NCBI GenBank assembly: GCA_964436855.1
Contig: CAYTED010000006.1
Span: 19,681-83,680 of the forward strand
Reading direction: 5' to 3'
Length of the DNA: 64,000 nucleotides
Source of the DNA: an uncultured Bdellovibrionales bacterium
GTDB taxonomy: Bacteria; Patescibacteriota; Minisyncoccia; Moranbacterales; UBA1568
The translations under genes and the position numbers were made by a program. The notes under the pieces were generated by a model. The model was not told the DNA's origin. It ran no database searches and worked only from the letters and a program-made list of their open reading frames with translations. This document shows positions 27,109 through 53,158 of the stretch, in pieces. Every line of letters starts with the position of its first letter. The first letter of the stretch is position 1.

Positions 27109-27149
27109 CCCCTCCTCAATCCTCCCCTTGGAAAGGGGAGGAGGGAAGG
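27109..27149 (+). repeat. polypyrimidine/polypurine hairpin repeat (CCCCTCCTCAATCCTCCCC-loop-GGGGAGGAGGG), copy a
   Basis: aacccctcctcaatcctcccc is identical at 27109, 48891 and 53123, with a variant at 30109. Inner stem CCTCCCC/GGGGAGG. Confidence 0.7.
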
Positions 27150-27186
27150 CTAGATCCCGGATCAGTGTCCGGGATGACAATGGAGA

Positions 27187-28932
27187 GTGAGTCGGGATGA
27201 TAGGAATACACAAAGAAAAAAAGCAATGGATTTTCAGACACACAATAACAATATTCGCGGGGTGAGTTTCTCGAATCCTTCAGAAGGAGGGCATGAGGAT
27301 GACGATCTTGTCTTTGATCCGCAGGAAGAGCGGAAGCGAATCGCAGAGGGAACGGAGGAATACCTCGGCGAGCTTCGCCGCGAGTGGGCGACGCGAAACG
27401 CGGGAAAACAATTGTTTCCGGAAAGTGTGGTGCGATTGAGTGAGCCGCTCCGGAACTGGATGCTGTCGATTGATCGGACGAGTTTTTACGATCGTCTTGC
27501 TGCGGAAACGAAACTTTCCTTCGAAGATCGAATCGGTCTCGCGAAAGCGGGATGGGAAATCGCCCTTGGTTCGAATTGGGGAGATCTGACACCGATTCTT
27601 TCCAAGTATATCCAATTGAATCCGTCGGCAATTTCTTTGCTTACGAACAAATTTTCAACGGAATTTCTTCCGAAAGCGAAAGAACTTTCGATACAGCAAG
27701 GGAAGCCTTCCATGCCGAGTGCATTTTCGGCATCGGTTCCGGAACAAAAATCTTTTGAACAACTCTCTTTGCTTCAAGCGTTGGGGAAATATCAGAATCT
27801 TGGGAATCAGCAGATAACGGGGTCGAAGATCGCGATTAAGGGGCAAAACGATCCGGTACGTCCGACGATTTTCAATTGGCTGAAAGCGTATCGTGATGAA
27901 CTCGGCGTGGGCAGGCACGATGCGGTCGTACGGGGAAATTTTCTCTTTCATTCGATCAATGGGAAGGGGCTCTCGGCGGAGGAGCGCGAGCGGCTCGGTA
28001 TGATCTTGAAGTCGCTTGATGAAAATGTGCCGGTGTCGGTGGACCCCGGGAAGCAGGAGATTGTGTTTCAAGAGGTGAGACCCGCCCACATTCCTTCAGA
28101 AAGTGTAGTGGGCAGGAGTGAGAGGCGAGAGGTGAGGAATGAGAAAGAAGATGCAGGCGTGACAAAGCCGGCATTTGCGATGCTCGCGCATCATCCGGAG
28201 GCGGCGTCTTATGAATCAAGAGCGAGGAATCAAGAGTTTAGAAATGAAAGAACAGATCAAAACATAAACAACACACGTCAAATAACCGAGCCGCCGAAAA
28301 TGTCGGAACAAATCGAGCTCGGGAAGCTTGCCGTGGTTCCCGGCGGATCGATGGTAAAAGAGGTTTCGGAGCCGGCCCCGGCTTCGGTGCCGCGTCGTGT
28401 GTCGTTTGAGCCGGCGAAAATCGAGAAGTTTGAATTTGGCACGAGTTCGGTTTCGGGTGGCGAGGCGAATCCGGTTTTTTCTGAATCAATTGAGCGATTT
28501 GGTGAAATCGAAAATACAATACCGCTTGCGACGCAGAATCCGAAGGTGGCGGAGTTTTTCAAGGCATCCCCAAAACATTCGAATCCTTCATCTCAAGAAG
28601 TTGGAGAATCGTCCTTGGAGAGAAGCGCTACAAGAGACGGAGAGATGAACAATGTGGGATCGGTGGTGTTTACGACAAAGCACGTTCTTCCGGCGGAAAA
28701 AGAAGCCGCGCTTGAAGCGAAAAAATCGGAAGAAAAACCGAAAGCCACTCCCAATACTCCGCTTTCAAAACCGGCATTCGATATTCCGAAGGTTGCCCCG
28801 AAACCAAAGCCGTCCGCACCGGCGCAACCGGTATATAATCCGGCGTATCGTATTCGCCCGATGTCGCATATGCATAAACAAGAAGAGGAGAAAGAGAATC
28901 TTCCTCCGAACGTAGTGAATTTGAAGGAGTGA
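27187..28932 (+). CDS. large hypothetical protein (acidic, low-complexity C-terminus), T4SS-locus associated
   Basis: 581-aa ORF with GTG start and a GGAGA SD. No recognisable domain; Pro/Lys/Ala-rich C-terminal region. Confidence 0.5.
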   Translation: MSRDDRNTQRKKAMDFQTHNNNIRGVSFSNPSEGGHEDDDLVFDPQEERKRIAEGTEEYLGELRREWATRNAGKQLFPESVVRLSEPLRNWMLSIDRTSFYDRLAAETKLSFEDRIGLAKAGWEIALGSNWGDLTPILSKYIQLNPSAISLLTNKFSTEFLPKAKELSIQQGKPSMPSAFSASVPEQKSFEQLSLLQALGKYQNLGNQQITGSKIAIKGQNDPVRPTIFNWLKAYRDELGVGRHDAVVRGNFLFHSINGKGLSAEERERLGMILKSLDENVPVSVDPGKQEIVFQEVRPAHIPSESVVGRSERREVRNEKEDAGVTKPAFAMLAHHPEAASYESRARNQEFRNERTDQNINNTRQITEPPKMSEQIELGKLAVVPGGSMVKEVSEPAPASVPRRVSFEPAKIEKFEFGTSSVSGGEANPVFSESIERFGEIENTIPLATQNPKVAEFFKASPKHSNPSSQEVGESSLERSATRDGEMNNVGSVVFTTKHVLPAEKEAALEAKKSEEKPKATPNTPLSKPAFDIPKVAPKPKPSAPAQPVYNPAYRIRPMSHMHKQEEEKENLPPNVVNLKE

Positions 28933-28953
28933 TTGTGTGGTAGAATAAAAAAT

Positions 28954-29349
28954 ATGATGTTCAATGTTCCACAATATATTGATATCGAAGACAAAATTGC
29001 CGGGCCGTTTACGGCGAAGCAACTCGGCTGGCTTTTTGCCGGTGGCGGGGCGTTGCTTGTTCTTTATTCGCTCTTTGATACCGCGACGCTTGCGGTAACG
29101 GGACTTCCGGTGCTTCTTTTGTCGCTCGCGCTCGCGTTTTATAAGCCGAACGGCGTTCCGTTTTCAAAGTTCCTCGTGCATGCGCTTCTCTATGTTTTTC
29201 GTCCGAAAATCGCGGTGTGGGAGCGTCCGGTGCGACAGGCGAATACATTGAAAATTTTTCCGGAACAGAAAAAGGAGGAAGTAAAAGAACAAAAGCATGT
29301 GACCGTAGCGGAAATTAGCGAAATTGCGAGAATGATTGACCAAAAATAG
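28954..29349 (+). CDS. VirB3/PrgI-like small membrane protein
   Basis: ~130 aa with two adjacent TM helices and the N-terminal motif VPQYIDIEDKIAGPFTAKQLGWL, immediately upstream of virB4-like genes. Confidence 0.45.
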   Translation: MMFNVPQYIDIEDKIAGPFTAKQLGWLFAGGGALLVLYSLFDTATLAVTGLPVLLLSLALAFYKPNGVPFSKFLVHALLYVFRPKIAVWERPVRQANTLKIFPEQKKEEVKEQKHVTVAEISEIARMIDQK

Positions 29350-29374
29350 TGACAAGTGACAAGGAATGTAAAGT

Positions 29375-30073
29375 ATGGAATTTCTGACAAAATCAAAAAA
29401 AGCGGAAGGATCGGGTCGGGCGAGTACCCAGCAATATATCGATGTCGAGCAGGTGCGCGATGGCGCGATCGTACTTCGGAATGGGTCGCTTCGCGCGGTT
29501 TTGCTTGTGTCGTCTGTGAACTTCGATCTCAAATCAAGCGAGGAACAAGACGCGACGATTATGCAGTATCAGAATTTCTTGAACTCGCTTGATTTTCCGG
29601 TGCAGATCGTGATTCAGTCGCGGCGGTTTAATGTGGAACCGTACCTCGCGCTTTTGCGGGACAAGGAAGCACAACAGGAAAACGAACTGCTTCGGTTTCA
29701 AATTTCCGAATACAAGTCCTTTATCGAAGGACTTGTGGAAGATCAGAATATTATCTCGAAGTTTTTCTATGTGGTCGTGCCGTTTTATCCGACCGAATCG
29801 CAATCGGAGGGGTTTGTGCAGAGGATCGGAGCGATGTTTAAGCCAAAGGAAACAATACTTGCCGATGAGAAGGTGTTCGAGGCGTACCGGAATCAACTCT
29901 ATCAACGCGTAAATCACGTGATGGCGGCGCTTGGAGCGACCGGCGTTCGACTCGCGGTGCTCGACACGGAAGATCTGATAGAGCTTCTCTACAATGCGTA
30001 TAACCCGTCACTTTTCACATCGGATGTGATTAAGGATTTGAGTCAGATAGAGTTGTCGGAAAAAGTACGGTAG
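29375..30073 (+). CDS. VirB4-like ATPase, N-terminal segment (split gene product)
   Basis: Matches the N-terminal region of Gram-positive-type VirB4/TcpF/PrgJ proteins (YIDVEQVRDGAIVLRNGSLRAVLLVSSVNFDLKSSEEQDATIMQYQNFLNSLDFPVQIV). Ends 88 bp before the main virB4 ORF, in a different frame. Confidence 0.55.
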   Translation: MEFLTKSKKAEGSGRASTQQYIDVEQVRDGAIVLRNGSLRAVLLVSSVNFDLKSSEEQDATIMQYQNFLNSLDFPVQIVIQSRRFNVEPYLALLRDKEAQQENELLRFQISEYKSFIEGLVEDQNIISKFFYVVVPFYPTESQSEGFVQRIGAMFKPKETILADEKVFEAYRNQLYQRVNHVMAALGATGVRLAVLDTEDLIELLYNAYNPSLFTSDVIKDLSQIELSEKVR

Positions 30074-30081
30074 GAAGAAGA

Positions 30082-30106
30082 GGTAACAGATAACAGATAA
30101 CAAAGG
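30082..30106. promoter_or_regulatory. tandem TAACAGATAA motif
   Basis: ggTAACAGATAACAGATAAcaaagg. The same 10-mer recurs at 32024, 49448 and 57369. Confidence 0.45.
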
Positions 30107-30108
30107 AA

Positions 30109-30149
30109 CCCCTCCCCGATCCTCCCCTTGAAAAGGGAAGGAGGGGAGG
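30109..30149 (+). repeat. polypyrimidine/polypurine hairpin repeat, copy b (3' arm is the virB4 Shine-Dalgarno)
   Basis: cccctccccgatcctcccc-ttgaaaa-gggaaggaggggagg; the GGAGG lies 9-13 nt upstream of the ATG at 30162. Confidence 0.7.
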
Positions 30150-30161
30150 TAAAGAAGAAGT

Positions 30162-32006
30162 ATGGAGTTGCCGTTTTTGGGAAAAAAGAATATCGCGGGG
30201 AACGGAATGGGAGCGCAAGATGCGGTTCCGATGGCGGCGTTGCGCGAAGAAGCGAATCTTTATCAGCGCGGACTTGCGTCGATGAAAGATCTGATTGCGC
30301 CGCCCGCGGTAAAAGTAACGTCGAATTCGATGCAAGTCGGGGCAACAATCACTCGAACGATGTTTGTGGTGGCGTACCCGCGATATTTGTCTACGAATTG
30401 GTTTTCCCCAATCGTGAATTTGGATTTTCCGATGGATGTCACGCTCTTTGTGCACCCGATCGATACCGGAGAGATTTTGAAACAGCTTCGGAAGTCGGCA
30501 ACGCAAGTGGAATCGCAAATCGAGATCGAACAGGAGGGTGGGAAAATTCGCGACCCCGTGCTCGAGACGGCGATGCAAGATATCGACGCGCTTCGAGACC
30601 GGCTTTTGCAGGGAACGGAAAAATTTTTCCGATTCGGGTTGTATCTCACGCTTTTTTCGGAAGATGAGACGAAATTGAACGAGATGAGTCAGACGATCGA
30701 ATCGCTTCTTGAGGCGCAACTCGTATATGTGAAGCCGGCCGTACTTCGGATGGATGAGGGGTTCGCCTCGACGCGCCCCTTGGCGACCGACAATCTTGAT
30801 GTCGCGAATAACCTTAATACCGGACCGCTTTCAACCACGTTTCCGTTTGTGTCGTCGGATCTTTCGTCGAATACAGGGATTCTCTACGGTATCAATCGAC
30901 ACAACAATTCGCTCATTCTTTTTGATCGGTTCAAGATGGAAAACGCGAATATGGTGGTGTTCGCAAAATCCGGCGCCGGAAAAAGTTATACCGTGAAACT
31001 TGAAGTATTGCGGACGATGATGATGGGGACGAGCGTGATTATTATCGATCCGGAAAACGAGTACAAGCATCTTGCCGAAACGGTCGGAGGATCGTTTCTT
31101 AAGATCTCGCTGAATTCGGAAGTACACTTGAATCCGTTTGATTTGCCGAAGATTGCCGAATCGGACGATCCGGAAGGCGTGTTTCGGAATACAATCGCAA
31201 GTCTTGTCGGACTTTTGCACCTGATGCTTGGGACGGTTACGCCGGAAGAGGATTCGATTCTTGACCGGGCGATTCGCGAGACTTACGCGATCCGCGATAT
31301 CAGCGAGCGAGCGGACTTCAAGTCGCTTGACGCTGGGTCGTTCCCGACAATGTCGGACCTCTATGCGGTGCTGAAAAATATGGAAGGAGCGGAATCGCTC
31401 GCGGCACGGCTCGAGCGGTATACCGAGGGGATTTTTGCCGGCTTTCTCAATCATCAGACGAATATTACGACGGAAAATCAGCTGGTTGTTTTTAACATTC
31501 GAGATCTCGAAGACGAGCTTCGGCCGATCGCGATGTATATTATTCTCCAGTATATTTGGAATGAAATGCGATCGAATATGAGGCAGCGGATTGTTGTCGT
31601 GGATGAAGCGTGGGTAATGATGCAACACGAAGATGCAGCCGCGTTTCTTTTTGGTGTCGCGAAGCGTTGTCGGAAATATTTTACCGGCCTCACAACGATT
31701 ACGCAGGATATTTCCGATTTTATGGCGTCGCGATTCGGGAAGCCGATCGTTACGAATTCCTCGATGCAGCTTCTTCTCAAACAGTCGCCGTCGTCGATTG
31801 ATGTGATCGCGGAAACGTTTTATCTCACCGATCACGAGAAGTTTCTCTTGCTCGAATCGAATGTGGGCGAGGGGATTTTCTTCGCGGGGACGAAACATGT
31901 TGCGATTAAGGTGATCGCTTCGTACAGCGAGGATCAGATTATTACGACCGATCCGCGGCAGCTCCTCGAAATCGAAGAGGCGAAGAAGGAGTTTGAGGGG
32001 AAGTGA
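30162..32006 (+). CDS. VirB4/TrbE/CagE-family type IV secretion ATPase (main segment)
   Basis: CagE_TrbE_VirB-region motif (TMFVVAYPRYLSTNWFSPIV), Walker A VVFAKSGAGKSYTV, Walker B RIVVVDEAWVMM, 614 aa. Confidence 0.85.
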   Translation: MELPFLGKKNIAGNGMGAQDAVPMAALREEANLYQRGLASMKDLIAPPAVKVTSNSMQVGATITRTMFVVAYPRYLSTNWFSPIVNLDFPMDVTLFVHPIDTGEILKQLRKSATQVESQIEIEQEGGKIRDPVLETAMQDIDALRDRLLQGTEKFFRFGLYLTLFSEDETKLNEMSQTIESLLEAQLVYVKPAVLRMDEGFASTRPLATDNLDVANNLNTGPLSTTFPFVSSDLSSNTGILYGINRHNNSLILFDRFKMENANMVVFAKSGAGKSYTVKLEVLRTMMMGTSVIIIDPENEYKHLAETVGGSFLKISLNSEVHLNPFDLPKIAESDDPEGVFRNTIASLVGLLHLMLGTVTPEEDSILDRAIRETYAIRDISERADFKSLDAGSFPTMSDLYAVLKNMEGAESLAARLERYTEGIFAGFLNHQTNITTENQLVVFNIRDLEDELRPIAMYIILQYIWNEMRSNMRQRIVVVDEAWVMMQHEDAAAFLFGVAKRCRKYFTGLTTITQDISDFMASRFGKPIVTNSSMQLLLKQSPSSIDVIAETFYLTDHEKFLLLESNVGEGIFFAGTKHVAIKVIASYSEDQIITTDPRQLLEIEEAKKEFEGK

Positions 32007-32046
32007 GGCAGAGAAAGATGATTGATAACAGATAATACTATTTTGT

Positions 32047-32598
32047 ATGCCGGTACCGATTGTTGCGGCGGTTGGAGGAGCAGCGGTGCGAGGAGTCGCC
32101 TCTGGTGGCGCGCGTTCGACGATTCGCGGAACTGCTCGGAATGCTCGTCGAAAATATATTGAAGCGACGGAACAGGCGTTTTTGTTTGAGCAGGGTGAGG
32201 CGGAGATACGGAAACATCATACATCGCTTCTTCTATATGCACCCGCATTTATGGTCGCTGGTTTTAAGGATATGATGGATTTGGTTGGTATCGGATCGCT
32301 TCCGGGCATCGGAACGATTGTGACTCTTTGTTGCTCGATACTGATTTTTCTTCTTTTGTTTATCACGCGGACGAATAAATCTCTCATTCAATCGCGATTT
32401 TTGATTCGAGCCGGACTGATTCTTATTTTCGCGACTCTCGTCGAAGGACTTGCGTTGGGCCTTAATTTTCTCCCCATAGAGATAATGACGATCTATGCGA
32501 TTTATTGGCTTGACAAGCACGAAGGATCAAAGGCCGCGCAGGCGATTCAAGGGACGCTTTCTTTGGTAGCTCGTTCCGGAAAGTTTGGAAGAGAGTAA
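32047..32598 (+). CDS. membrane hypothetical protein
   Basis: 183 aa with 3-4 TM helices and a Gly/Ala/Arg-rich N-terminus. A TAACAGATAA motif sits immediately upstream. Confidence 0.45.
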   Translation: MPVPIVAAVGGAAVRGVASGGARSTIRGTARNARRKYIEATEQAFLFEQGEAEIRKHHTSLLLYAPAFMVAGFKDMMDLVGIGSLPGIGTIVTLCCSILIFLLLFITRTNKSLIQSRFLIRAGLILIFATLVEGLALGLNFLPIEIMTIYAIYWLDKHEGSKAAQAIQGTLSLVARSGKFGRE

Positions 32599-33277
32599 TA
32601 TATTTGAATTTATGAATACTATTGTTGTACGTGAAATGTTTTCGGATCGAAAATTCCTTGTAACCGGAGGAGTGATAATCTCAATTCTTCTTCTGTATGC
32701 GTTTTTTCCGGAATCGGTCGGACTCGCGCCGGTTCTTCAGGGCATTATTGCGCTCTTTCTTTTCTTTTTCCTCTTTCCGGTTCTCTATTGTAAAATAATA
32801 CTGAAGGAACCGATCTTTACGCTCGGATTTCGGTTTCCGGAGGGGGTGGCCGGTTGGTTTTTTGTTCTTTTTGCGGTCGTTCTTGGTATCGGAGGAGCTT
32901 TTCTCTTGAAGATATTTTTTCCGGAAGCAATGTCCGACGCGGCGATTCCCGATACGGTCAGAAAATCGTTTGGATCGTTCCTTCGGTTCGAACTTTTTTC
33001 GATCGTTATTCTCTTCTTGTATGAAGTGTTTTTCCGCGGGTTCGTAATGCTTTCGTGGCTTTCTCGATTTGGTCGGGGATCGGTGGTATTGCAGTGGGTC
33101 GTGTTTATGTTGTTTCTTGCAACCACGGGAACATTCGGGTGGGATCAGGCGCGGATGATTCTTTTTGCGCCGCTTGCCGGGTGGATCGCGCTTTCGACTC
33201 GATCAATCGGCTTCTCGTTTCTTGCGGCGACTCTTTTTTTTCTCATCACCGATATTATTATTCTTTTTTCCCGATAA
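32585..33277 (+). CDS. CPBP-family (CAAX protease/Abi-like) intramembrane protein, tentative
   Basis: Multi-TM protein with an EExxxR-like motif (LYEVFFRGFV). Confidence 0.35.
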   Translation: MEESNIFEFMNTIVVREMFSDRKFLVTGGVIISILLLYAFFPESVGLAPVLQGIIALFLFFFLFPVLYCKIILKEPIFTLGFRFPEGVAGWFFVLFAVVLGIGGAFLLKIFFPEAMSDAAIPDTVRKSFGSFLRFELFSIVILFLYEVFFRGFVMLSWLSRFGRGSVVLQWVVFMLFLATTGTFGWDQARMILFAPLAGWIALSTRSIGFSFLAATLFFLITDIIILFSR

Positions 33278-33280
33278 TAT

Positions 33281-36031: not shown

Positions 36032-36066
36032 GCGAAGAAATACGGTGCGCTGATTTCTCTGAAAAA

Positions 36067-36093
36067 ACACCCTCTCATGGGGTGTTTTTTTTT
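36067..36093 (+). terminator. rho-independent terminator
   Basis: acaccc-tctcat-gggtgt followed by TTTTTTTTT. Confidence 0.75.
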
Positions 36094-36177
36094 GGTGCCT
36101 TGGGAGAGACTCGAACTCTCATGGATTGCTCCGCTAGTTCCTAAAACTAGTGCGTATACCAATTCCGCCACCAAGGC
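36094..36177 (-). tRNA. tRNA-Leu (anticodon UAG), CCA encoded
   Basis: Manual fold: acceptor GCCTTGG/CCAAGGC, long D-loop, anticodon stem CTAGT/ACTAG with loop TTTAGGA (UAG), long variable arm, T-arm GAGAG-TTCGAGT-CTCTC, discriminator A, CCA. Confidence 0.8.
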
Positions 36178-36192
36178 ATAGAAGTTGTTTCC

Positions 36193-36513: not shown

Positions 36514-36544
36514 AGGAAAGAAATGAGAGGGGGTGAATGAGGGT

Positions 36545-37114: not shown

Positions 37115-37130
37115 CTTTGTTTTTTACCAG

Positions 37131-37201
37131 TCGGAGTGCCGGGAATCGAACCCGGGTTACACGCACCCGAAGCGTGCGTAATACCACTATACCACACTCC
37201 G
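37131..37201 (-). tRNA. tRNA-Pro (anticodon CGG), no encoded CCA
   Basis: Manual fold: acceptor CGGAGTG/CACTCCG, anticodon stem CACGC/GCGTG with loop TTCGGGT (CGG, U33, G37), T-arm CCGGG-TTCGATT-CCCGG, discriminator A. The D-stem has one mismatch. Confidence 0.65.
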
Positions 37202-37293
37202 ATTTTATGGATTTATGATGTATGATTTTTGATTGAAGAATAGATGCGGAAACATTCATTCATAAATCTTAAATCTAAAATCCCAAATCATTC

Positions 37294-42685: not shown

Positions 42686-42696
42686 TGTGAGCCTAC

Positions 42697-44542: not shown

Positions 44543-44543
44543 A

Positions 44544-45092
44544 TCATTTCTTTTCAGCAGTCATTTCTTCTTTTTTCGCCGAAGCAAGGACGATTGCTTC
44601 GCGCTCTTCTTCGGTAAACGGGAAGCCGTCTTCTTTGCCCTCGATGACGGGTTTTGCGTAAATCCGCGCTCCTTCTCGCGTATGAAGCGACGAGAGTACG
44701 GTTCCCGAGTTTTTTCCATCAAGGAGAGCGAGCGAGAAACTTTGGTTGCTTCCAACTTCTTTGAATGGATTGAATCGAACGAGCTCGGTTTTATGGATAC
44801 CCTGATTGGCAAGTCCGTAAATCCGATTCGATATTTCGAACAATTCCTGAATCTCTTTATCGATACTCTTGAGCGTTTCGGAATGATTCTCTAAAACTTT
44901 CTCGAGATTGGCGCCGTTTTTTCCTCGGAGAAACAGATTCAATTTTTTCTCGTATGAAGTATTTTTCTTCCAGAGAAAGAAAACAAGCCCGAGGAGAACG
45001 ATATGCACGCCGAATGCGATGGAAAAAAGCATCCATTCCGCAAATGAAATGTCGGAAAAGGTTGAAAAATTCATAGCGCTTCTCGGAATCAT
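44544..45092 (-). CDS. DUF4446-like membrane protein
   Basis: N-terminal TM and ...RFNPFKEVGSNQSFSLALLDGKNSGTVLSSLHTREGARIYAKPV... resembling DUF4446 (from memory). Its stop is adjacent to the infB start. Confidence 0.45.
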   Translation of the reverse strand: MIPRSAMNFSTFSDISFAEWMLFSIAFGVHIVLLGLVFFLWKKNTSYEKKLNLFLRGKNGANLEKVLENHSETLKSIDKEIQELFEISNRIYGLANQGIHKTELVRFNPFKEVGSNQSFSLALLDGKNSGTVLSSLHTREGARIYAKPVIEGKEDGFPFTEEEREAIVLASAKKEEMTAEKK

Positions 45093-45156
45093 CCAGTATC
45101 GAAACTTTCCGCAGAATACACCGAATTTTGTCTTTTGTAAAGGGTTTTTTAATTTG

Positions 45157-45243
45157 CGGAAAGGGAGAGATTCGAACTCTCGATACCCTTTCGGGTATGC
45201 CGCTTTTCGAGAGCGGTGCCTTCAACCACTCGGCCACCTTTCC
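45157..45243 (-). tRNA. tRNA-Ser (anticodon CGA), no encoded CCA
   Basis: Manual fold: acceptor GGAAAGG/CCTTTCC, D-arm GCCGAGTGGTTGAAGGC, anticodon stem CCGCT/AGCGG with loop CTCGAAA, long variable hairpin, T-arm GAGAG-TTCGAAT-CTCTC, discriminator G. Confidence 0.8.
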
Positions 45244-45318
45244 ATATATCGCGCGTGCATTTCAAAAAAGCACTTCCTTGTTGTACAATAAATACAGTAT
45301 AAAGGCAAACACAATACT

Positions 45319-45861
45319 ATGCAGAACGGAATGTCGTTTGTGGATCCGGCGTCGGTGATTCGTGCGCTCAAGCTCGAGGCAGGGAAGGTCGTGGCGGATT
45401 TTGGGTGCGGTGCGGGGTATTTTACTTTCGAGGCGGCAAAGGCGGTAAAAGATGAGGGAAAGGTTTATGCGCTCGATATTTTACAGCCCGCACTTGAGTC
45501 GGTGTCGAGTCGGGGAAAAATTCTCGGATTGAAGAATATCGAACCGAAGCGCGTGAATTTGGAAAAAGTCGGCGGATCGGGACTTTCTCCGGAAAGTATC
45601 GATTGGGTGATTTTGAAGGATATGCTCTTCCAAAACAAGGGGAAGGAAGTGATCTTGCAAGAGGTGTTTCGCGTGCTTCGCCCGGGAGGAAAAGCGCTTG
45701 TTATGGAGTGGGTTCCCGATGATTCTGCGGTCGGTCCGGAAGAGGGGATACGTATTTCCGAAGACGAAGCGAAGAAACTTGCGCAGTCAATGGGATTTTC
45801 CGTCATTTCGGGCGTTCCATCGGGGGATTTTCATTATTCGTTCATTATTGAAAAGAAATGA
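45319..45861 (+). CDS. class I SAM-dependent methyltransferase
   Basis: Motif I VADFGCGAGYFT, a post-I acidic residue (YALDI) and motif II-like VDWVILKDM, 180 aa. Confidence 0.75.
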   Translation: MQNGMSFVDPASVIRALKLEAGKVVADFGCGAGYFTFEAAKAVKDEGKVYALDILQPALESVSSRGKILGLKNIEPKRVNLEKVGGSGLSPESIDWVILKDMLFQNKGKEVILQEVFRVLRPGGKALVMEWVPDDSAVGPEEGIRISEDEAKKLAQSMGFSVISGVPSGDFHYSFIIEKK

Positions 45862-47267
45862 GGCGGTTTCAAAACAAAAAAACAGGACGGGTGTTTCGTG
45901 TTTTGGCAGTGGCGTTTTTTCTCGTCTCGGCGATTTCTCTTTCCGGGTGCGGCTTCAAAGAGCAAGAAGAGCCGTATGCCGTTACGCTTGAAATGTGGGG
46001 TGTGTTTGACGATACCGACGCGTTTCAAGATGCGATCGGCGAATACTTGCGTACCAATCCGCATGTTCGGAATATCGAATATCGGAAAATGCCGGTTGAT
46101 ACGTATGAAAAAGATCTTCTTGAGGCGCTTGCCACCGGCAACGGGCCGGATATTTTTCTCATTCGCAATTCGTGGCTTCCGTCATATATCGACAAAGTGG
46201 CGCCGGCCGACCCCGCGTTTATTTCCGAGCGATCCTATCGCGATACATTTATCGACGTCGCCGCGGATGATTTTTTCGCGGAAGGAAAGGCGTATGCCGT
46301 CCCGCTCTCGGTTGATTCTTTGGGATTGTATTACAACAAGAGTCTTTTGAATGCTGCCGGCATCGGCTCTCCGGCGCGAACATGGGACGAACTTGCCAAG
46401 CAGGTCCGGCTCCTGACCAAGGTGGATGAGTATGGGAATATTACGCAGGCAGGTGTCGCACTTGGTACCGCGTACAATATCAATCGTTCGACGGATATTC
46501 TCTCGGCGCTTTTTCTTCAGTTTGGCGCGAGGATTGATTCTTACAAGGAAAATCAGGTTGATTTTCAGAAAGAGGCGAGCGACGCGATGCAATTTTATAC
46601 GGAATTTTCTCGACGCGGCGAATACTATTCTTGGGACAGCCGGGAGCATTATTCTCACGATGCCTTTTACGAGGGATCGCTTGCGTATATGATCAATTAC
46701 TCGTGGCATATTCCGACGATTCGCCAGAAAAACGCAAAGCTTGATTTTGGAGTTGCTTCACTTCCGCAGTTCAATGGTGTCGCGCCGGTGAACTTTGCGA
46801 ATTACTGGGGGTTTGCGGTGGCGAAAAATAAAATTGCTCCCACGCCGAATCCCGGAGAGCCGGTTACGCTTCCCGCCGGAAAAGAAAATGACTTGCGAAT
46901 TTTCGAGTCGTGGCAGTTTCTTCGGTATCTTTCGTTTCCGAATAAGGGGGCGATCACCCTCAAAAACGCGCTTTCGGGAAATACGAGGGAGTTTCCGATG
47001 AAAATCGATCCGGCGAAGAAGTATCTTGAGGTAACCGGAAAGCCGGCCGCGCGTCGGGATCTTCTTGAGGCGCAGAAAAGCGACTTGTGGCTTGGTCCGT
47101 TTGCCGAGGGAAATCTTATCGCAAAGAGCTTTCGGCAGTATCGACCGGAGCAAACCGAGGCGCTTCTCGCGGAAGCGATCGACAATGTGAATCGCGGGGC
47201 GTTGTCGATTTATAATGCGCTTGATCTTGCAAAATCGAAAATCAATCAGGTAAATGGGGAAAGGTGA
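45858..47267 (+). CDS. extracellular solute-binding lipoprotein (ABC transporter SBP family 1-like), orphan
   Basis: Lipoprotein signal (LSGCGF), then a pattern typical of sugar-type SBPs (GNGPDIFLIRNSWLPSYID...). No permease or ATPase genes adjacent. Confidence 0.7.
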   Translation: MRRFQNKKTGRVFRVLAVAFFLVSAISLSGCGFKEQEEPYAVTLEMWGVFDDTDAFQDAIGEYLRTNPHVRNIEYRKMPVDTYEKDLLEALATGNGPDIFLIRNSWLPSYIDKVAPADPAFISERSYRDTFIDVAADDFFAEGKAYAVPLSVDSLGLYYNKSLLNAAGIGSPARTWDELAKQVRLLTKVDEYGNITQAGVALGTAYNINRSTDILSALFLQFGARIDSYKENQVDFQKEASDAMQFYTEFSRRGEYYSWDSREHYSHDAFYEGSLAYMINYSWHIPTIRQKNAKLDFGVASLPQFNGVAPVNFANYWGFAVAKNKIAPTPNPGEPVTLPAGKENDLRIFESWQFLRYLSFPNKGAITLKNALSGNTREFPMKIDPAKKYLEVTGKPAARRDLLEAQKSDLWLGPFAEGNLIAKSFRQYRPEQTEALLAEAIDNVNRGALSIYNALDLAKSKINQVNGER

Positions 47268-47315
47268 TTCGGACAGTAGATACAAGGTTACGTAATTCGG
47301 TATTCGAATAAAGAA

Positions 47316-48371
47316 ATGCGGGTGAGTTTTCAAAAACTTTTTTTCGTGATCGGAAGTTCTCTTTTTGTATGGATGCAACCGACATCGGTCGGGGCGGCGC
47401 TTGTGCCGTGCGGCATCGGGGATGGTCCGGCGTGTACGCTCTGTCATATTATTGTCGGTGGCAAGGGTTTGATCGACTGGGGAATGAGCATTATGGTGAT
47501 CGTCGGGATCGCGCTTATTACGATTGCCGGTATTCGGTATGTCGTTTCGATCGGTCGATCGGGCGAAATGGGCGCCGCGAAGGGGATGATCGGGAAAACG
47601 CTCGGCGGGATCGCGCTTCTCCTGACGGGATGGTTGATTGTGAATGTAATCATTACCGTTCTTGCAAACGACAATCTCGGTATCGGCATTCAAAAAGAAA
47701 ACTGGTACAAGTTTTCGTGTGATGCGAAATCGGCGATAGAAGCGTCGGCGGAAGGGGCGATTCTTTCTCGCGGGAGTGATTCAAAACAAATCGCTTGTGA
47801 AAATGCCGATACGATGAAATCACGGCTTTCGAGCGGGGGCGGGGTATGCGTCGGGGTATGCCAGAGGAATGCATGCAGTTTTTCCGGTCCGGTCGATATC
47901 GCGATCCGCGAAGCAAAACTCCCGAATGGTATTTCGAGAAACCTTCTTGCCGCGGTGATCTGCCAAGAATCAAGCGGTCGAGCGTCGGCAACCAACACCA
48001 GAGGCTCTTTTACGAGTTGTGGACTGATGCAGGTAAATTCAAACGAGGTCGGCAATACGACCTGTACCGACAAGGTGAATTTGTTTGATCCGAAAATAAA
48101 TATCGAAAAGGGACTGGAAATTCTTTCCAAAAAATTCTCGAGTGTCAGCGCCGAGAAATATAAGACTGTCTCGAAAACGAACCAGGCGCTCGCGGCGTAC
48201 AATTGTTGCGGAAATGGCGAGAATCCGAATACCGAAAGCGTGAGTTGCAAGGCAAATGACGGGTGGGAATCGGTTCCAAGATGGGCGTGTCCGATTGATC
48301 CCGGTGGAATGTGTGTTGTCCGGGAGTATGCGTGCGATGTGGCGCTGTGTGAAGGACAGTATTCATATTAA
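47316..48371 (+). CDS. fusion of a TrbC/VirB2-like pilin module and a lytic transglycosylase (SLT/VirB1-like) domain
   Basis: N-terminal signal plus Cys motif (LVPCGIGDGPACTLC) and a two-TM pilin-like hairpin, then an SLT domain with catalytic-Glu motif AVICQESSG and GLMQV. Confidence 0.6.
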   Translation: MRVSFQKLFFVIGSSLFVWMQPTSVGAALVPCGIGDGPACTLCHIIVGGKGLIDWGMSIMVIVGIALITIAGIRYVVSIGRSGEMGAAKGMIGKTLGGIALLLTGWLIVNVIITVLANDNLGIGIQKENWYKFSCDAKSAIEASAEGAILSRGSDSKQIACENADTMKSRLSSGGGVCVGVCQRNACSFSGPVDIAIREAKLPNGISRNLLAAVICQESSGRASATNTRGSFTSCGLMQVNSNEVGNTTCTDKVNLFDPKINIEKGLEILSKKFSSVSAEKYKTVSKTNQALAAYNCCGNGENPNTESVSCKANDGWESVPRWACPIDPGGMCVVREYACDVALCEGQYSY

Positions 48372-48518
48372 TCCTGATTTTTTCAAGCAATCTTTCTGTG
48401 CCGGAAAATTTCCAGCGAAACTTTCCTGAAGTTGAAGAAAAAACTTTTCTGCTGGAACAGCAAAGACCGTGCTTTTTTCTTCAAATTCGCCCAGAAAGAT
48501 TCTTGAAAAAAATCAGGA
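48371..48518. repeat. nested-palindrome intergenic element, copy 2
   Basis: Outer 27-bp inverted repeat atcctgattttttcaagcaatctttctg / cagaaagattcttgaaaaaaatcagga. The core ctgaagttgaag...aaagaccgtgcttttttcttcaaattcgccc is homologous to 27000-27060. Confidence 0.55.
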
Positions 48519-48531
48519 AGGATTCAGTGAT

Positions 48532-48810
48532 ATGATTTTATTTGAAACAGCGAAGGCGGCGGGGGTGATTGAAAGCGCACCATCGGTCGGAGCGCTTTTC
48601 TCGAATATTCTCTTCTTTTTGTTGTCGGTTGTCGGGATCGTTGGTATACTGGGGATGGTGTTCTCCGGTTTTCAGTATCTCTTTTCATTTGGCGATGCCA
48701 AGAGGGTGGAACAGGCGAAAGCATCGTTTCGGTATTCGGTGATCGGCATTCTTGTCGCTCTCGGGGCGCTCATTCTTTTGAAAACGATCGAAGGGTTGTT
48801 GCGACAGTGA
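48532..48810 (+). CDS. TrbC/VirB2-like pilin
   Basis: ~92 aa with two TM helices and the pattern FSNILFFLLSVVGIVGILGMVFSGFQYLFSFGDAKRVEQAKASFRYSVIGILVALGALILL shared by the paralogs. Confidence 0.6.
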   Translation: MILFETAKAAGVIESAPSVGALFSNILFFLLSVVGIVGILGMVFSGFQYLFSFGDAKRVEQAKASFRYSVIGILVALGALILLKTIEGLLRQ

Positions 48811-48850
48811 AAGGTTATGGGTACTGAAAAGTTTTTTCCCCTCTCCTTTC

Positions 48851-48935
48851 GCGGAGGAGGAGGCAGGGGGAGGTGGGAATGAAATCTAAACCCCTCCTCA
48901 ATCCTCCCCGCCAGCTGGCGGAAAAGGGGAGGAAG
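48851..48935 (+). repeat. polypurine arm plus polypyrimidine/polypurine hairpin repeat, copy c
   Basis: gcggaggaggaggcagggggaggtggg...cccctcctcaatcctcccc-gccagctggcggaaaa-ggggaggaag. Confidence 0.65.
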
Positions 48936-48976
48936 CGAACTTGGTAAAAATAAAAACAGAAAGGAGGTGACGGCAC

Positions 48977-49342
48977 ATGATACAAACAATGAAAAAAATC
49001 GGATATGGAATTGCTGCGAGCGCAATGATGTCGGCTCCGATGGCGGCATTCGCGCAGTGGAATGCGAGCAATTACTCAAGTAGCGGTCTTTCCAATACGA
49101 GCGTGACCACACTTATCGTGAACATAATGAAGTGGCTCCTCTATCTCCTTGGATTCATCGCTATTATCGGATTTGTTATCGCGGGCGTTCTCTATCTTAC
49201 CGCGTACGGTGATAAGGAGCAGATCGACAAGGCGAAAAAAGCGATGCTCTATTCGATTGTTGGCGTGCTTGTGGCACTGATCGGATTTATCGTCGTTACC
49301 GCGGTCACCAATTTCCTTTCGGGAGGAACGACCTCGATTTAA
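48977..49342 (+). CDS. TrbC/VirB2-like pilin
   Basis: Signal peptide (AASAMMSAPMAAFA), TTLIVNIMKWLLYLLGFIAIIGFVIAGVLYLTAYGDKEQIDKAKKAMLYSIVGVLVALIGF. Confidence 0.6.
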   Translation: MIQTMKKIGYGIAASAMMSAPMAAFAQWNASNYSSSGLSNTSVTTLIVNIMKWLLYLLGFIAIIGFVIAGVLYLTAYGDKEQIDKAKKAMLYSIVGVLVALIGFIVVTAVTNFLSGGTTSI

Positions 49343-49466
49343 TGCAGAGAAGTCAAAGTGTATACACTTCGAAACAATCCCGCCTTTTTGGCGGATTGTT
49401 TTTTTTCGTGCGTATGGGATAATATGGGAAGAAGAGAAGGTATATTTGATAACAGATAATTTTTTT

Positions 49467-50078
49467 ATGAAGAAATATTTTTTTGTCTCGTTTGTATTTT
49501 TTGCAGCTCTTGTTTTCTTTGGTTTTCAGGGGGCGGCGTTTGCGCAGCTTGCTCCGCTTCAGTGTGTATCTGAAAATGCATCGTGTCAGCTCAATAATAC
49601 TACGATAGGTATATGTAAGAAGGTGTGTTCTGAATTTGACAACTCCTGCGGGCTTTCTTGTTCTGCTGATCCAAATGCCAAGACAAGTACAGCACTCCCG
49701 ACTCCCTCGACGAGTACGACGCAGCAGAGCCCAACCCAGGCGCAAAGCAGTACGAGCGCCCCTGTTCCGGTAACCTCTATCAAGCGTACCGGGCCGATTG
49801 TTCCGTCGTCGCAGGAACTTTTCGGATTGCCGGATACGTCAATTACGACACTGATTACGAATCTGATGGGGTGGCTCCTCTATATTTTCGGATTTATCGC
49901 GATTATCGCCTTTATTATTTCGGGATTGCAGTATCTGACGTCGGCGGGGGACTCGAAACAAATTGAGACCGCAGAATCAACAATGAAATATGCAATGCTT
50001 GGTGTCCTTGTAACGCTCGGATCGCTTGTTGTGATCAAGGCGATCGAACGAATGCTCCGCGCCTCGCTTATTTTCTGA
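49467..50078 (+). CDS. TrbC/VirB2-like pilin with N-terminal Cys-rich extension
   Basis: Signal peptide, six Cys (CVSENASCQ..CKKVCSEFDNSCGLSC), a Thr/Ser/Pro linker, then the pilin module ITTLITNLMGWLLYIFGFIAIIAFIISGLQYLTSAGDSKQIE. Confidence 0.55.
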   Translation: MKKYFFVSFVFFAALVFFGFQGAAFAQLAPLQCVSENASCQLNNTTIGICKKVCSEFDNSCGLSCSADPNAKTSTALPTPSTSTTQQSPTQAQSSTSAPVPVTSIKRTGPIVPSSQELFGLPDTSITTLITNLMGWLLYIFGFIAIIAFIISGLQYLTSAGDSKQIETAESTMKYAMLGVLVTLGSLVVIKAIERMLRASLIF

Positions 50079-50091
50079 AATGTTTTTCTGT

Positions 50092-50847
50092 ATGACCCGA
50101 CATCGAAATACTTTTTTTTCTTTTGTTCTCGCTTCGCTCGTGTTTTTTTCCGGAGCTGCTTCGGTTTCGGCACAAGCGCCGAGTTGTGCAAGTTTTGGCG
50201 GGACATGTGAATTAAGTTGTGATCTTTCGGTGACAGAGGATAAGACACCGGTATCTGATTGTAAAATTCCACCGAAGCAGACTTGTTGCGTCGCAAAAAA
50301 ATCACCCACGTCTTCGTCGGTAGGTCTGTCCGATGTTCAAATCACCAATTCTTTGAAATACGATTCCGTGGAAGCATTTGTTTCGGCGGTGCTTGTTACA
50401 ATTCAAGGGATTGTCGCGACGCTTGCGGTGCTTGCGATCGTGATCGGCGGCGTTCTCTATATTATTTCCGCTGGCAATTCGACGTGGATGGGGTATGCGA
50501 AAGGAGCGATTACCGGGGCGCTTATCGGACTCGCTCTCGTGATCGCGGCACCATCGTTTTTGAAAGAAATTTACGATATCCTTGGCGCTCGAAACAAACC
50601 GGCTGAAGTTTCGGCGGCGCTTTCTCTTACGCAGATTGCGATGAATGTGCTCAATTTCCTCCTCTCCATTATCGGTGTCCTCGCGGTGATTATGCTCATT
50701 ATCGGCGGGCTCACTTATCTCACTTCGGCGGGGGATACGAAGCGTATCGAAACCGGTCGGAATATCGTAAAATACGCGTTCATCGGTATTACGGTCGCCC
50801 TTGCGTCGCTTATTCTTATCCGAACGGTCGAAGGACTGCTTCGGTAA
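50092..50847 (+). CDS. tandem double TrbC/VirB2-like pilin with N-terminal Cys-rich segment
   Basis: Two successive pilin-like modules (..AILVLAIVIGGVLYIISAGNS.. and ..NVLNFLLSIIGVLAVIMLIIGGLTYLTSAGDTKRIE..) after a Cys-rich signal region. Confidence 0.55.
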   Translation: MTRHRNTFFSFVLASLVFFSGAASVSAQAPSCASFGGTCELSCDLSVTEDKTPVSDCKIPPKQTCCVAKKSPTSSSVGLSDVQITNSLKYDSVEAFVSAVLVTIQGIVATLAVLAIVIGGVLYIISAGNSTWMGYAKGAITGALIGLALVIAAPSFLKEIYDILGARNKPAEVSAALSLTQIAMNVLNFLLSIIGVLAVIMLIIGGLTYLTSAGDTKRIETGRNIVKYAFIGITVALASLILIRTVEGLLR

Positions 50848-50910
50848 TTTATTCTTGAAAAACAAAAACGGGCGAAGCGCGATGATACTGTGCTTGCCCG
50901 TCTTTACCTC

Positions 50911-52044
50911 CTACAACCGGATTCCGGTGTAGAAGTTGATCTTGATTTGCGTGGGACCGCTCAAGATCAAAGTGGTTTTCAATGTGCTAGGGATATTGAA
51001 TTCCCCGGAGGCACACCCACCTACATCGCTCTCGAACTCTCCGTCACCCGGGAGGGCTTTGTTGAGAACGAGTGCCCACGCGCGGTTTTTCGGACCCGGG
51101 AGCATCTCTCCTTTCGGATCGACACTCTCCGTACCGCTCACGTCGCGGGCTCGCTTTTCGTACTCGACGCCGTTTGACGTTTCGTATCCAACAATGAGCG
51201 ACCCGTCGACCTTGAACCGATATTGTTGCATCGGCTCGAGCCCACAGACCTCGATCGGCTTCGCGAGCGAGTCGACTCGGATGATTTTTTCGAGGCCGAC
51301 CACCTTTGCTTTGAGAGCATCGGTTCTTGGCGTCTTCCTCACCTCCGCGTAAACTTTCTTCACGAGCTCGGGATGGTCTTTCCTTGAAAGGTTTCCCTTT
51401 CGGAGCTCTTCCATCTCGCGGGCTTTCGCGGCATTCTCCCGATCTTCGAGATCGTTGAGAATTTGCTGTGCCGCCACTTGTTGTGGTGGTGTCGCAAAGG
51501 CGCGGAGTGGATCGAACCCCAAGAGGTTGATCCTCGTGGCCGATGGGAACATCGCCACGATTCCGACGGCACACATCGCGAGGAATATCCACGCCGTGAT
51601 TCGCCGGTACCACTTTACCGGCGTTTGGTAGTGCCAACACCAGAATCCGAAGCCGATGAGCCCCGCGACGAGGATCATCGATTGGATGAAGTTGCCTTTG
51701 AGGGGGAGTAGGAACGTCGCCCCTACAAAGGCTGCGAGGAAGAGGCCAGCCGAGACGCAGAAGTTTTTGTACTTCTTGAACGCGTCGTCGACCGCGAGTC
51801 CCACGACTCCGACCATCACGAGCACGTACGGCTGTATTGCGAAGTATGTGACCGCCGCAATCGCCGGGATGAGGAGGAGGACATTCACGAGTTCCTTGCC
51901 GATGAATCCGGCAAAGATCATGCCGAGTCCGAACAGTACCAGATTCACGACGACCCGGAAATACAGGGTGTCGTAGAAGATCTGGGCATTGCGTCCGGCT
52001 CGGAGGAATGCGAGCTGTGCAGCCCGCCGAATCAGTGTGAACAT
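50911..52044 (-). CDS. polytopic membrane hypothetical protein (GC-rich patch)
   Basis: 377 aa with at least 6 TM helices in the N-terminal half and a soluble C-terminal domain. GC content is above the neighbours. Confidence 0.45.
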   Translation of the reverse strand: MFTLIRRAAQLAFLRAGRNAQIFYDTLYFRVVVNLVLFGLGMIFAGFIGKELVNVLLLIPAIAAVTYFAIQPYVLVMVGVVGLAVDDAFKKYKNFCVSAGLFLAAFVGATFLLPLKGNFIQSMILVAGLIGFGFWCWHYQTPVKWYRRITAWIFLAMCAVGIVAMFPSATRINLLGFDPLRAFATPPQQVAAQQILNDLEDRENAAKAREMEELRKGNLSRKDHPELVKKVYAEVRKTPRTDALKAKVVGLEKIIRVDSLAKPIEVCGLEPMQQYRFKVDGSLIVGYETSNGVEYEKRARDVSGTESVDPKGEMLPGPKNRAWALVLNKALPGDGEFESDVGGCASGEFNIPSTLKTTLILSGPTQIKINFYTGIRL

Positions 52045-52067
52045 TTAATACTCCTTTCCCCGAACCT

Positions 52068-52841
52068 TCAGAAGGTCCGGATATCGTTGTTGGTCATGAG
52101 CATGAAAGCTACCATGCCCACGATGGCGAGTACTGCGAGGAGGTACCAGAGCATTCGACCGGGTTTATCGTTGGCCGTCCGCTCCGTCAACCACTCACGC
52201 CCTTGGCGCTCGTGATCACGTTGCCATCCGTCGAGCTGCGATTTCAATTCCTCGACGGAGTTCACTCCGAAGAGTTTGAAAATCTCTTTCTGAAGTTTGA
52301 CGCTCTTTACGAGTCGGATGACATACTTCAAATCATCCTTTGGACCCGAAAGGGTCTTGGAATCACGAAGTATCTTCACGGCTTCTTTTGGATCCATCGA
52401 GCAAAAAAGCTTGAGGATCATTGCTCCGCGGATATTTCCGACGGTTTTGGCATCATGATACCCGCCTTGACCATCGGGGATCCTGATCGTTACATCACTT
52501 TCGCGACGACCGATCATTTGGTAGAACTTTTTGCATTCGCCCGGATTCTTTTTGAGTATACCGAGAATTTGAGCAAGATGGTTGAGTTCTTGTTGGTTCA
52601 GTATGCCCTTGTTTTGACCAAGAGCAACCGCCCCCCAGAACAACGTTTCATCATCAAGGCCAAATCCAAATGGATCTGCGGCGAGCTTGTCCTTATCAGG
52701 TGCTTGTTGTTGCACGCCTTCGAATTTCTGACGTGCCGCCCCTATCGCTTGGCCGATCGTCCCATAACCCAGGAACGAGCCGAGCGTTTCAAATCCTCCG
52801 AGGATTTTTTTCCAGGTTTCCCTGTTGTCAACCATCTCCAT
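52068..52841 (-). CDS. hypothetical protein with C-terminal TM anchor
   Basis: 257 aa with a C-terminal TM (MLWYLLAVLAIVGMVAFMLM). Convergent with nothing annotated. Confidence 0.45.
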   Translation of the reverse strand: MEMVDNRETWKKILGGFETLGSFLGYGTIGQAIGAARQKFEGVQQQAPDKDKLAADPFGFGLDDETLFWGAVALGQNKGILNQQELNHLAQILGILKKNPGECKKFYQMIGRRESDVTIRIPDGQGGYHDAKTVGNIRGAMILKLFCSMDPKEAVKILRDSKTLSGPKDDLKYVIRLVKSVKLQKEIFKLFGVNSVEELKSQLDGWQRDHERQGREWLTERTANDKPGRMLWYLLAVLAIVGMVAFMLMTNNDIRTF

Positions 52842-53122
52842 TCCCTTCTCCTCCGCTTGGGAGGTAAAAAATTGGTAAAGTGCCTGTTACAAATGATGCC
52901 TGAACAGGCTCTGATTTTGTAACACTCTATATTAGCACAAAATTGAGAAAAAGTCAAGTGTAAAAAACGAGATATTGAGCTTTATATAAGCCTCAATTTC
53001 GATGAACAAGGAGGGAATTTTTATGGATTTAAAGACTCGGTGTCTTGACGAAGGTAAAAGGCTTTTTCTTTCTCCTCCAAAAAAGAGGGTAGAGTGAGGT
53101 AAAAGTGAGAGTAAAATCCGAA

Positions 53123-53158
53123 CCCCTCCTCAATCCTCCCCTTAGAAAGGGGATGAGG
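53123..53158 (+). repeat. polypyrimidine/polypurine hairpin repeat, copy d
   Basis: cccctcctcaatcctcccc-ttagaaa-ggggatgagg. Confidence 0.65.

Follow-up and report, generated by a model that had tools for sequence, protein, structure and literature searches.

Four hairpins in a Moranbacteria genome are probable members of a BoxC/PIT/TM-type repeat family with a putative DUF559 nuclease partner

Introduction

A stretch of 64,000 nt from an uncultured member of the Moranbacteria (contig CAYTED010000006.1; the whole stretch is called the window) carries four short hairpins, each with a pyrimidine-rich and a purine-rich arm, and the question that this locus raises is whether they regulate the genes behind them or belong to a dispersed repeat. 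A first-pass annotation had recognised an anti-Shine-Dalgarno/Shine-Dalgarno (SD) pair in the stem and offered three explanations: SD-sequestering riboregulators or thermosensors, a repeat like repetitive extragenic palindromes (REP), or mirror repeats able to form H-DNA. In this study, we find it probable that the four hairpins form part of one REP-like dispersed family of the BoxC/PIT/TM type, with a DUF559 nuclease as its putative cognate protein, and that they are not regulators of the adjacent genes.

The BoxC element of E. coli, later named the PIT element and then TMECO, reads CCCTCNCCC N3-6 GGGNGAGGG N3 GGGNGAGGG (Holder et al. 2015, PMC4666352). Repeats of this class are intergenic and without strand bias, and type A and type B units occur in inverted pairs; cyanobacteria are rich in similar G/C-rich motifs, Enterobacter includes strains with more than 300 motifs and others with fewer than 30, and transposases or integrases were "never found" near TM repeats by the same authors (PMC4666352). 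For about 30 years they have been orphan elements, from E. coli to cyanobacteria and, as described here, in Patescibacteria too. They are abundant, conserved and placed at rearranged loci, and published work has left them without a function and their origin and spread unexplained.

Results

A pattern search of the window for the 21-mer AACCCCTCCTCAATCCTCCCC, run against 100 dinucleotide shuffles, located exact matches at 27107-27127, 48889-48909 and 53121-53141 (copies 1, 3 and 4) and a form with two mismatches, AACCCCTCCCCGATCCTCCCC, at 30107-30127 (copy 2), all on the + strand; the shuffles gave 0 matches. This agrees with the first-pass annotation, which had listed four + strand copies, three of them with an identical 21-mer; the copies stand, and only their start positions, placed 2 nt inside the 21-mer, needed correction. 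Neither a family hidden Markov model (nhmmer) nor a generic scan for pyrimidine-arm hairpins found additional copies in the 64-kb window. Two more contigs with an identical pilin represent the same strain, and copies 3 and 4 are present in both.

Each copy follows the order AA, block X (CCCCTCC), 3-5 nt, block Y (CCTCCCC), a loop of 7-16 nt and block R (GGGGAGG-type). The hairpin results from pairing of Y with R, and X mirrors Y, exactly so in copies 1, 3 and 4 and with agreement over the first 7 positions in copy 2. The opposite strand of the unit therefore presents a C-stem, a loop, a G-stem, a short loop and a second G-stem: on the - strand, all four copies read CCTCCCC, a 7-nt loop, GGGGAGG, ATTGA or ATCG, and GGAGGGG. 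As read from the sequence, GGGGAGG, ATTGA and GGAGGGG amount to seven perfect G.G/A.A triplets. Pyrimidine blocks arranged as mirror repeats are the kind described as a potential intrastrand triplex in BoxC/PIT/TM (PMC4666352), and the suggestion of mirror repeats was essentially right. In an alignment of the four copies, conservation is much stronger in the 21-mer, at the 5′ part, than in the 3′ arm; the flanks 5′ of all four are purine-rich. Folding predicts stable RNA hairpins (-19.4 to -25.7 kcal/mol), with z-scores of only -1.5 to -2.2, which are modest because the base composition is so biased.

Copy 1, an A-type unit at 27107-27145 on the + strand, consists of AA, X (CCCCTCC, 27109-27115), TCAAT, Y (CCTCCCC, 27121-27127), TTGGAAA, R (GGGGAGG, 27135-27141) and AGGG, with a predicted energy of -23.6 kcal/mol. 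Copy 2, also A-type (30107-30149, + strand, -25.7 kcal/mol), has an R arm, GGGAAGGAGGGGAGG, that holds two GGAGG. In copy 3 (A-type, 48889-48933, + strand), the loop is widened by an inner GC hairpin (GCCAGCTGGCGG) and the R arm reads GGGGAGGA. The extra purine arm that had been noticed upstream of copy 3 is real and proves to be a second, inverted and diverged unit of B type at 48838-48877 on the - strand, comparable to those in L007, L039 and L026 (locus numbers of our scan of other genomes, below): CCCCTCTCC, loop, GGAGGAGG, AGGCA, GGGGGAGGTGGG. It was assigned by reading, since nhmmer gave no score there. The two units make up a doublet, 48838-48933, with an 11-nt spacer between their facing GGT/AAC ends. 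Copy 4 (A-type, 53121-53166, + strand, -21.6 kcal/mol) has the loop TTAGAAA, a degenerate R arm GGGGATGAGG, TTAGGGA and a T-run. Two stretches are candidates for decayed partner units. The purine-rich stretch 5′ of copy 1 (27079-27104, TATAGAGAGTAAGGGGTAAGGGAAAA) is possibly its decayed partner, given that in the predicted fold of 27079-27215 the upstream GGGGUA run is paired with copy 1 at its AACCCC end (z = -4.6). Likewise, 53070-53112 (CTTTCTCCTCC, AAAAAA, GAGGGTAGAGTGAGGTAAAAGTGAGAG) is possibly, from its sequence, the decayed inverted partner of copy 4. Single copies such as 1, 2 and 4 would be decayed doublets.

The family extends far beyond this genome. Representative genomes were scanned once with AACCCCTCCYCRATCCTCCCC, which yielded 94 loci where about one match is expected for random sequence of equal size. 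These loci span at least 10 phyla and include Moranbacteria, other Patescibacteria, Xanthomonadaceae, Ignavibacteria, Nitrospinota, cyanobacteria, Rhizobiaceae and others. After the 21-mer, nearly all matches continue with a variable self-complementary loop and then GGGGAGG; many loci have an inverted partner and some the full 3′ closing block GGTGGGGTT, and the units start with AACC and finish with GGTT. The doublet of B(-), spacer and A(+) seen at copy 3 recurs in L007, L039, L083, L090, L026, L005 and others, and Vulcaniibacterium thermophilum (L034, 3833-4264 and 6357-6833) has two gene-free tandem arrays of 3-4 alternating A/B units with a period of 136-141 bp. By rough open reading frame (ORF) calls, orientation to neighbouring genes is mixed across the 94 loci, and many copies lie just past a stop codon. 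Copies in both orientations were what the first-pass annotation itself had named as evidence for a REP-type repeat and against 5′ regulation. Tandem arrays, doublets and singlets within one family are REP/BIME-like behaviour, so that the earlier option of a REP-like repeat was essentially right. Two other classes were considered and ruled out: integron attC sites have a different core-site order (here AAC/GTT are outermost, not innermost) and the arrays lack cassettes, and CRISPR is incompatible with the spacing.

Some members of the family have unusual surroundings. One copy in a Magasanikiibacteriota genome (L047, ~7133-7178) lies apparently in frame within a long ORF, reminiscent of Rickettsia palindromic elements. 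In the cyanobacterial loci L024, L043 (Nostocales HT-58-2) and L049 (Richelia), the element is nested in a larger conserved unit, ...ATACCAATT...AACACATCGGTTG, element, GGTGGGGTTA...CAAACATTTTTTT, which resembles a small transcript or a larger repeat.

When the ORFs around the 94 loci were clustered, one small DUF559/Vsr-like family was found to recur across phyla. At three of the 94 loci, from three phyla, the element brackets a DUF559 gene within 0-25 nt (L029, Moranbacteria; L030, a gammaproteobacterium; L042, Ignavibacteriaceae). A further set of 80 metagenome loci was fetched by DUF559 protein alignment alone (the best 80 of 563). Here, a strict pyrimidine-arm hairpin lay within 130 nt upstream of 58/75 DUF559 genes (77%) and downstream of 67/78 (86%), and neither flank had one in only 2/73 loci. 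Other genes of those contigs had such a hairpin at 3/97 upstream and 7/121 downstream boundaries, giving odds ratios of 107 upstream (p = 2e-26) and 99 downstream (p = 8e-33); all other 145-nt windows of these contigs had such a hairpin at a rate of 1.3%.

Upstream of the DUF559 gene a G-rich block follows the hairpin in 30/50 cases, and a C-rich block is present on its far side in only 4/50; on the downstream side, a C-rich block precedes the hairpin in 37/65, against 9/65 for the alternative. The positions of these third blocks therefore place the two units in inverted orientation with their X blocks turned toward the gene. In inverted form, a gene's own two flanks also match better than flanks taken from different genes (median score 29 versus 17, p = 2e-14), and flank sequences recur elsewhere on their own contig at 41x the cross-contig rate. 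Mirror symmetry among the flanking units was 0.68, compared with 0.65 for direct and 0.61 for shuffled sequence. Small DUF559 (Vsr-like PD-(D/E)XK) nuclease genes are thus flanked by inverted units with X blocks inward, and the gene-less doublet therefore has the same structure, with a short spacer in place of the gene.

A direct connection to the window sequence is provided by the Moranbacteria contig MFSB01000022, where the 5′ flank of the DUF559 gene reads, on the opposite strand, AACCCCTCCTCATTCCTCCCC, one mismatch from the window 21-mer. The same contig has an exact copy of the 21-mer, and GGAGGGGTT of the 5′ flank abuts the ATG of the nuclease gene. Mobility of the gene was looked for as several contexts of identical proteins and had to be rejected: two exact DUF559 proteins, each traced over dozens of contigs, occupy one genomic context per protein. 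By analogy, this single context resembles that of single-copy RAYTs and not that of multi-copy insertion sequence elements. At the glmS/RNase T site, gene and doublet are both absent in three relatives, and therefore the unit with its ends was gained or lost as a whole. The DUF559 proteins match the DUF559 structure 3HRL (E = 4e-25) and, weakly, that of I-Bth0305I (PDB 3R3P), a homing endonuclease of the EDxHD type, and they retain the D...E-x-D-G-x-x-H residues. I-Bth0305I is intron-encoded with a unique gene target, whereas the DUF559 genes here are free-standing between hairpin repeats. Our literature searches (DUF559, EDxHD, REP, ycjD) did not find the link between DUF559 genes and flanking repeats described, and a fragment-based search was also without relevant match; the nearest published item was a table in which DUF559 genes are enriched among predicted inversion targets.

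In E. coli K-12, ycjD is a DUF559 gene. Its 3′ flank, toward fabI, holds BoxC-type units, one of them full (CCCCTCGCCCCTCTGGGGAGAGGGTTAGGGTGAGGGG), and is the site of the first BoxC description, upstream of envM/fabI. Among 5426 complete E. coli genomes, the BoxC element occupies a median of 16 places per genome and ycjD is single-copy, being present in 3378 (62%). The phylogroups that lack ycjD have the eef efflux operon in its place (PMC12817139). In an evenly spaced genome sample, BoxC-like places had a median of 19 where the ycjD-adjacent copy is kept and of 6 elsewhere, many genomes having 1-5 (p = 7e-10), a difference that fits a partner relationship and is confounded by phylogroup. The ycjD locus itself (NC_000913.3 1351040-1351830; L202 2540-3340) features a perfect 16-bp hairpin, whose 3′ arm holds the SD and the GTG start, as well as a duplicated fragment of the ycjD 3′ end.

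The sites of the window copies were compared with those in related genomes. Type IV secretion system (T4SS) loci of five related Moranbacteria (L095, L096, L098, L099 and L101) were obtained via VirB4 homologues with 77-98% amino-acid identity, and no copy was found at the orthologous positions in any of the five, which speaks against dedicated regulation of the adjacent genes. The spacer between the TraC-like gene and VirB4 measures 7-10 nt in two relatives; in the relative whose VirB4 is 98% identical it is 71 nt and without hairpin, and in two further relatives it is filled by other long palindromes with a purine arm and a pyrimidine arm. In L095, only ~60 nt separate the genes matching those around copy 1. 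The copies have thus entered intergenic spacers of this Moranbacteria lineage, and the same sites in relatives are empty of them.

The neighbours named earlier hold: 30162-32006 encodes a VirB4/TraG-type ATPase, 48469-48810 and 48977-49342 encode T4SS pilins, and 53430-54737 encodes NusA. All four copies are intergenic. Copy 1 is placed between a 132-aa ORF ending at 26954 and an ORF starting at 27187, copy 3 between the two pilin genes, and copy 4 within the divergent region between a - strand ORF (52068-52841) and nusA. That the copies always lie upstream of + strand genes is true and uninformative, because three of the four, in a run of + strand genes, are also downstream of + strand genes.

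Discussion

Taken together, these results make a REP/REPIN-like repeat with a DUF559 partner the most likely explanation of the four hairpins. Judged by their sequence, the window units are of the BoxC/PIT/TM class (Bergler 1992; Hoyne & Maher 2000; Holder et al. 2015) and are new members, in Patescibacteria, of an already known kind of repeat: they share its three-block layout, are G/C-rich, intergenic, multi-copy and of no fixed orientation, form inverted A+B pairs and sit at variable loci. Their G/C-rich motif is a different one, and both sequence and stems set them apart from TMECO proper: stems of 7 nt (CCTCCCC/GGGGAGG) and a second loop of 5 nt take the place of CCCTCNCCC...GGGNGAGGG N3 GGGNGAGGG. 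Also unlike the published members, they have a Patescibacteria genome as host and relatives that bracket DUF559 genes, while no associated gene is known from published work.

In their organisation, the repeats parallel REP, BIME and REPIN sequences, which are likewise short extragenic palindromes found as singlets, inverted doublets and alternating arrays or clusters. The likeness to REPIN-RAYT goes further, as in both a gene that is single-copy and vertically stable lies between inverted copies of the repeat belonging to it, and copy number is apparently higher where the gene is present. The differences are clear as well. No GTAG or CGTC tag ends the palindrome, and the flanked gene encodes a Vsr-like PD-(D/E)XK nuclease, for which no transposition chemistry is known, and not an HUH/Y1 enzyme. 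A phmmer search with E. coli RayT (E <= 10) of the ORFs of the window and of L001-L101 found no RAYT/Y1 near the repeats, within the limited sensitivity of a single-sequence query; all-against-all clustering of the ORFs neighbouring repeats also found no such transposase. The gene-less doublet further resembles a miniature transposable element with inverted repeats (MITE), since it looks as if a gene-bearing unit with inverted ends had lost its interior. In contrast to a MITE, its ends are themselves hairpins, the unit that bears the gene is single-copy and its protein is no known transposase. By these parallels, we infer that the DUF559 nuclease would be to this family what RAYT is to REP/REPIN: it may recognise or cut the hairpin or the doublet ends, upon which copies would be made or converted. 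Local effects would be side effects, such as a stable hairpin of any kind can have on the message next to it in an operon transcript.

Could the hairpins nevertheless be functional RNA? As SD-sequestering riboregulators or RNA thermometers, their pyrimidine arm would mask a GGAGG in the 5′ untranslated region until melting or a factor frees it for virB4, the pilin, nusA and the hypothetical gene. Besides the stability of the predicted hairpins, copy 2 speaks for this: its two GGAGG (30140-30149) end 12 nt before the virB4 ATG at 30162, are the sole SD-like sequence within ~20 nt of it and are both paired in the -25.7 kcal/mol stem, a pairing with the pyrimidine arm that recalls SD-sequestering leaders such as ROSE and fourU. 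However, only copy 2 has SD distance from a start. Copy 1 has no start within 40 nt, copy 3 is followed after 44 nt by a pilin ATG whose own AGGAGG SD, at ~48963, falls outside the element, and copy 4 is ~265 nt from nusA with a near-consensus promoter between. Unlike ROSE and fourU, the window units are not tied to a gene family, are mostly far from starts and are not conserved at orthologous genes. Searched with Rfam, the whole window gave only tRNAs at gathering score, and at E <= 10 the copies were overlapped only by chance-level miRNA matches. With the family moreover found in either orientation in many phyla, in gene-free arrays and at the flanks of nuclease genes, 5′ regulation by these hairpins is not supported and seems to us highly improbable. 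As modelled, it is plausible that the purine arm of copy 2 provides the SD of virB4 and is sequestered in the stem, as a by-product of insertion. A more generic RNA role, in which the host retains the hairpins between operon genes because they end transcription without a factor or stabilise the 3′ end of the preceding message, would account for the co-orientation of all four copies with a mostly + strand gene run, for their position in spacers, for the T-run after copy 4 and for the many copies just past a stop codon in other phyla. Stabilisation of upstream mRNA is a known effect of REP sequences. The terminator pattern, however, is not seen in any of the four copies, being that of a hairpin plus T-run (that of copy 4 begins ~8 nt past the stem), positions are not conserved, and copies 2 and 3 are inside apparent operons, where termination would be harmful. 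E. coli members, according to earlier work by Maher's group as cited in PMC4666352, are without promoter or terminator activity. We therefore consider such a role quite unlikely.

Two further explanations deserve consideration. According to the view of Holder et al. (2015), the repeats would form non-B DNA independently of any protein, with an intrastrand triplex, H-DNA or cruciform stalling replication and provoking recombination, and DUF559 genes would merely land or be retained at such fragile sites. The X/Y mirror repeats and the seven putative triplets on the - strand are compatible with this, as are the hypervariability of the sites and the presence of various palindromes at them; triplex of TM repeats forms in vitro and TM loci are unusually rearranged (PMC4666352). 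On the other hand, in vivo footprinting does not support the triplex (PMC4666352), mirror symmetry does not appear to be general among the DUF559-flanking units, and fragility alone leaves the X-block geometry, the matched A/B flanks and the flank that provides an SD unexplained, which makes this account unlikely in our estimation. The dependence could also be reversed, the repeats spreading by other means and DUF559 being a homing-type parasite: after cutting a gene-less doublet it would be copied, through repair, into the spacer, with the hairpins as homology arms. Its relation to I-Bth0305I and the position of the gene exactly at the doublet spacer, with ~40-60 nt of repeat on each side, speak for such a history. 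Each exact protein, however, is confined to one context and does not occupy several doublets in a genome, a single ycjD in E. coli stands against ~16-28 BoxC copies that include A+B pairs, and at the glmS/RNase T site relatives without the gene are also without the doublet. We hold this to be a minority possibility that deserves to be kept in mind, and favour a nuclease that serves the repeats.

Several points weigh against a repeat family partnered by DUF559. The ORF calls behind the orientation tally are crude and noisy in GC-rich genomes. An exact 21-mer across at least 10 phyla does not fit neatly, the more so as phage carriage of it was seen on one IMG/VR contig only. As the best 80 of 563, the metagenome loci represent one DUF559 subfamily, and the mirror symmetry of the window copies does not appear to be general in their flanking units. 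DUF559 proteins beside the same 21-mer are only ~41% identical, and their closer relatives carry different hairpins, so that protein and repeat do not simply co-vary. Within the 64-kb window there is no DUF559 gene. We know of no DUF559 protein for which transposition, cleavage or binding has been shown, and a 115-aa Vsr-like nuclease is without obvious strand-transfer activity. A clean empty site was not found in E. coli, where the eef operon fills the ycjD-less locus; the copy-number difference in that species follows phylogroup as well as ycjD. Finally, no target-site duplication was seen at the examined sites, where the intergenic DNA of relatives is too diverged for a clean empty site.

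A wider proposal, which we advance tentatively and at somewhat less than even confidence, is that BoxC/PIT/TM repeats in general are non-autonomous partners of DUF559 (YcjD-type) nucleases and form a second cross-phylum system of repeat plus enzyme, parallel to REPIN-RAYT and built on a PD-(D/E)XK nuclease. The gene-bearing unit would be a nuclease gene between an inverted A/B pair, and gene-less doublets and singlets would be its dispersed population. If true, this would give a function to DUF559, including ycjD of E. coli, and a mechanism for the spread of BoxC. The association turns the BoxC puzzle into a hypothesis testable in a model organism and offers a clue to what a very large domain family may do. 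For annotation, the four "anti-SD/SD" hairpins are lineage-specific insertions of a dispersed repeat and should not be entered as regulating virB4, pilin or nusA.

Additional observations

In the spacer between the TraC-like gene and VirB4, the palindromes of two relatives (L096, 9792-10001; L098, 1282-1464) have one GA-rich and one CT-rich arm around a GC hairpin centre, and purine/pyrimidine-asymmetric palindromes are seemingly habitual in these Moranbacteria genomes. Small genes are also gained or lost at syntenic sites of these genomes, namely 23S_rRNA_IVP/bAvd-like four-helix-bundle genes and a 74-aa GIY-YIG gene (L192, 5296-5673; L095, 8224-8595; L210, 6283-6507 and 7595-7969).

Directly 5′ of copy 1, the window contains a nested palindrome of ~130 nt (26948-27078; CCATTGAGTCCCAACACTT ... 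AAGTGTTGGAACTCAATGG, inner GAAGTTGAATCCGAAA / TTTCGGATTCAAATTC), and a similar hairpin, GAAGTTGAA...TTCAAATTC, lies just before the first pilin gene (48428-48488). From their sequences, these two look like a second small repeat family.

The region ahead of nusA has features of its own. A near-consensus promoter, with TTGACA, 17 nt and TATACT (with TG), lies within 53190-53274; behind it come a terminator-like hairpin (53244-53264) and a T-run, and the whole may define a short leader or small RNA of ~50 nt before nusA. Just upstream of the gene, at 53294-53421, is an inverted repeat with A-rich and T-rich arms of ~53 nt; the same-strain contigs from two other samples both stop at window position 53407, an assembly break.

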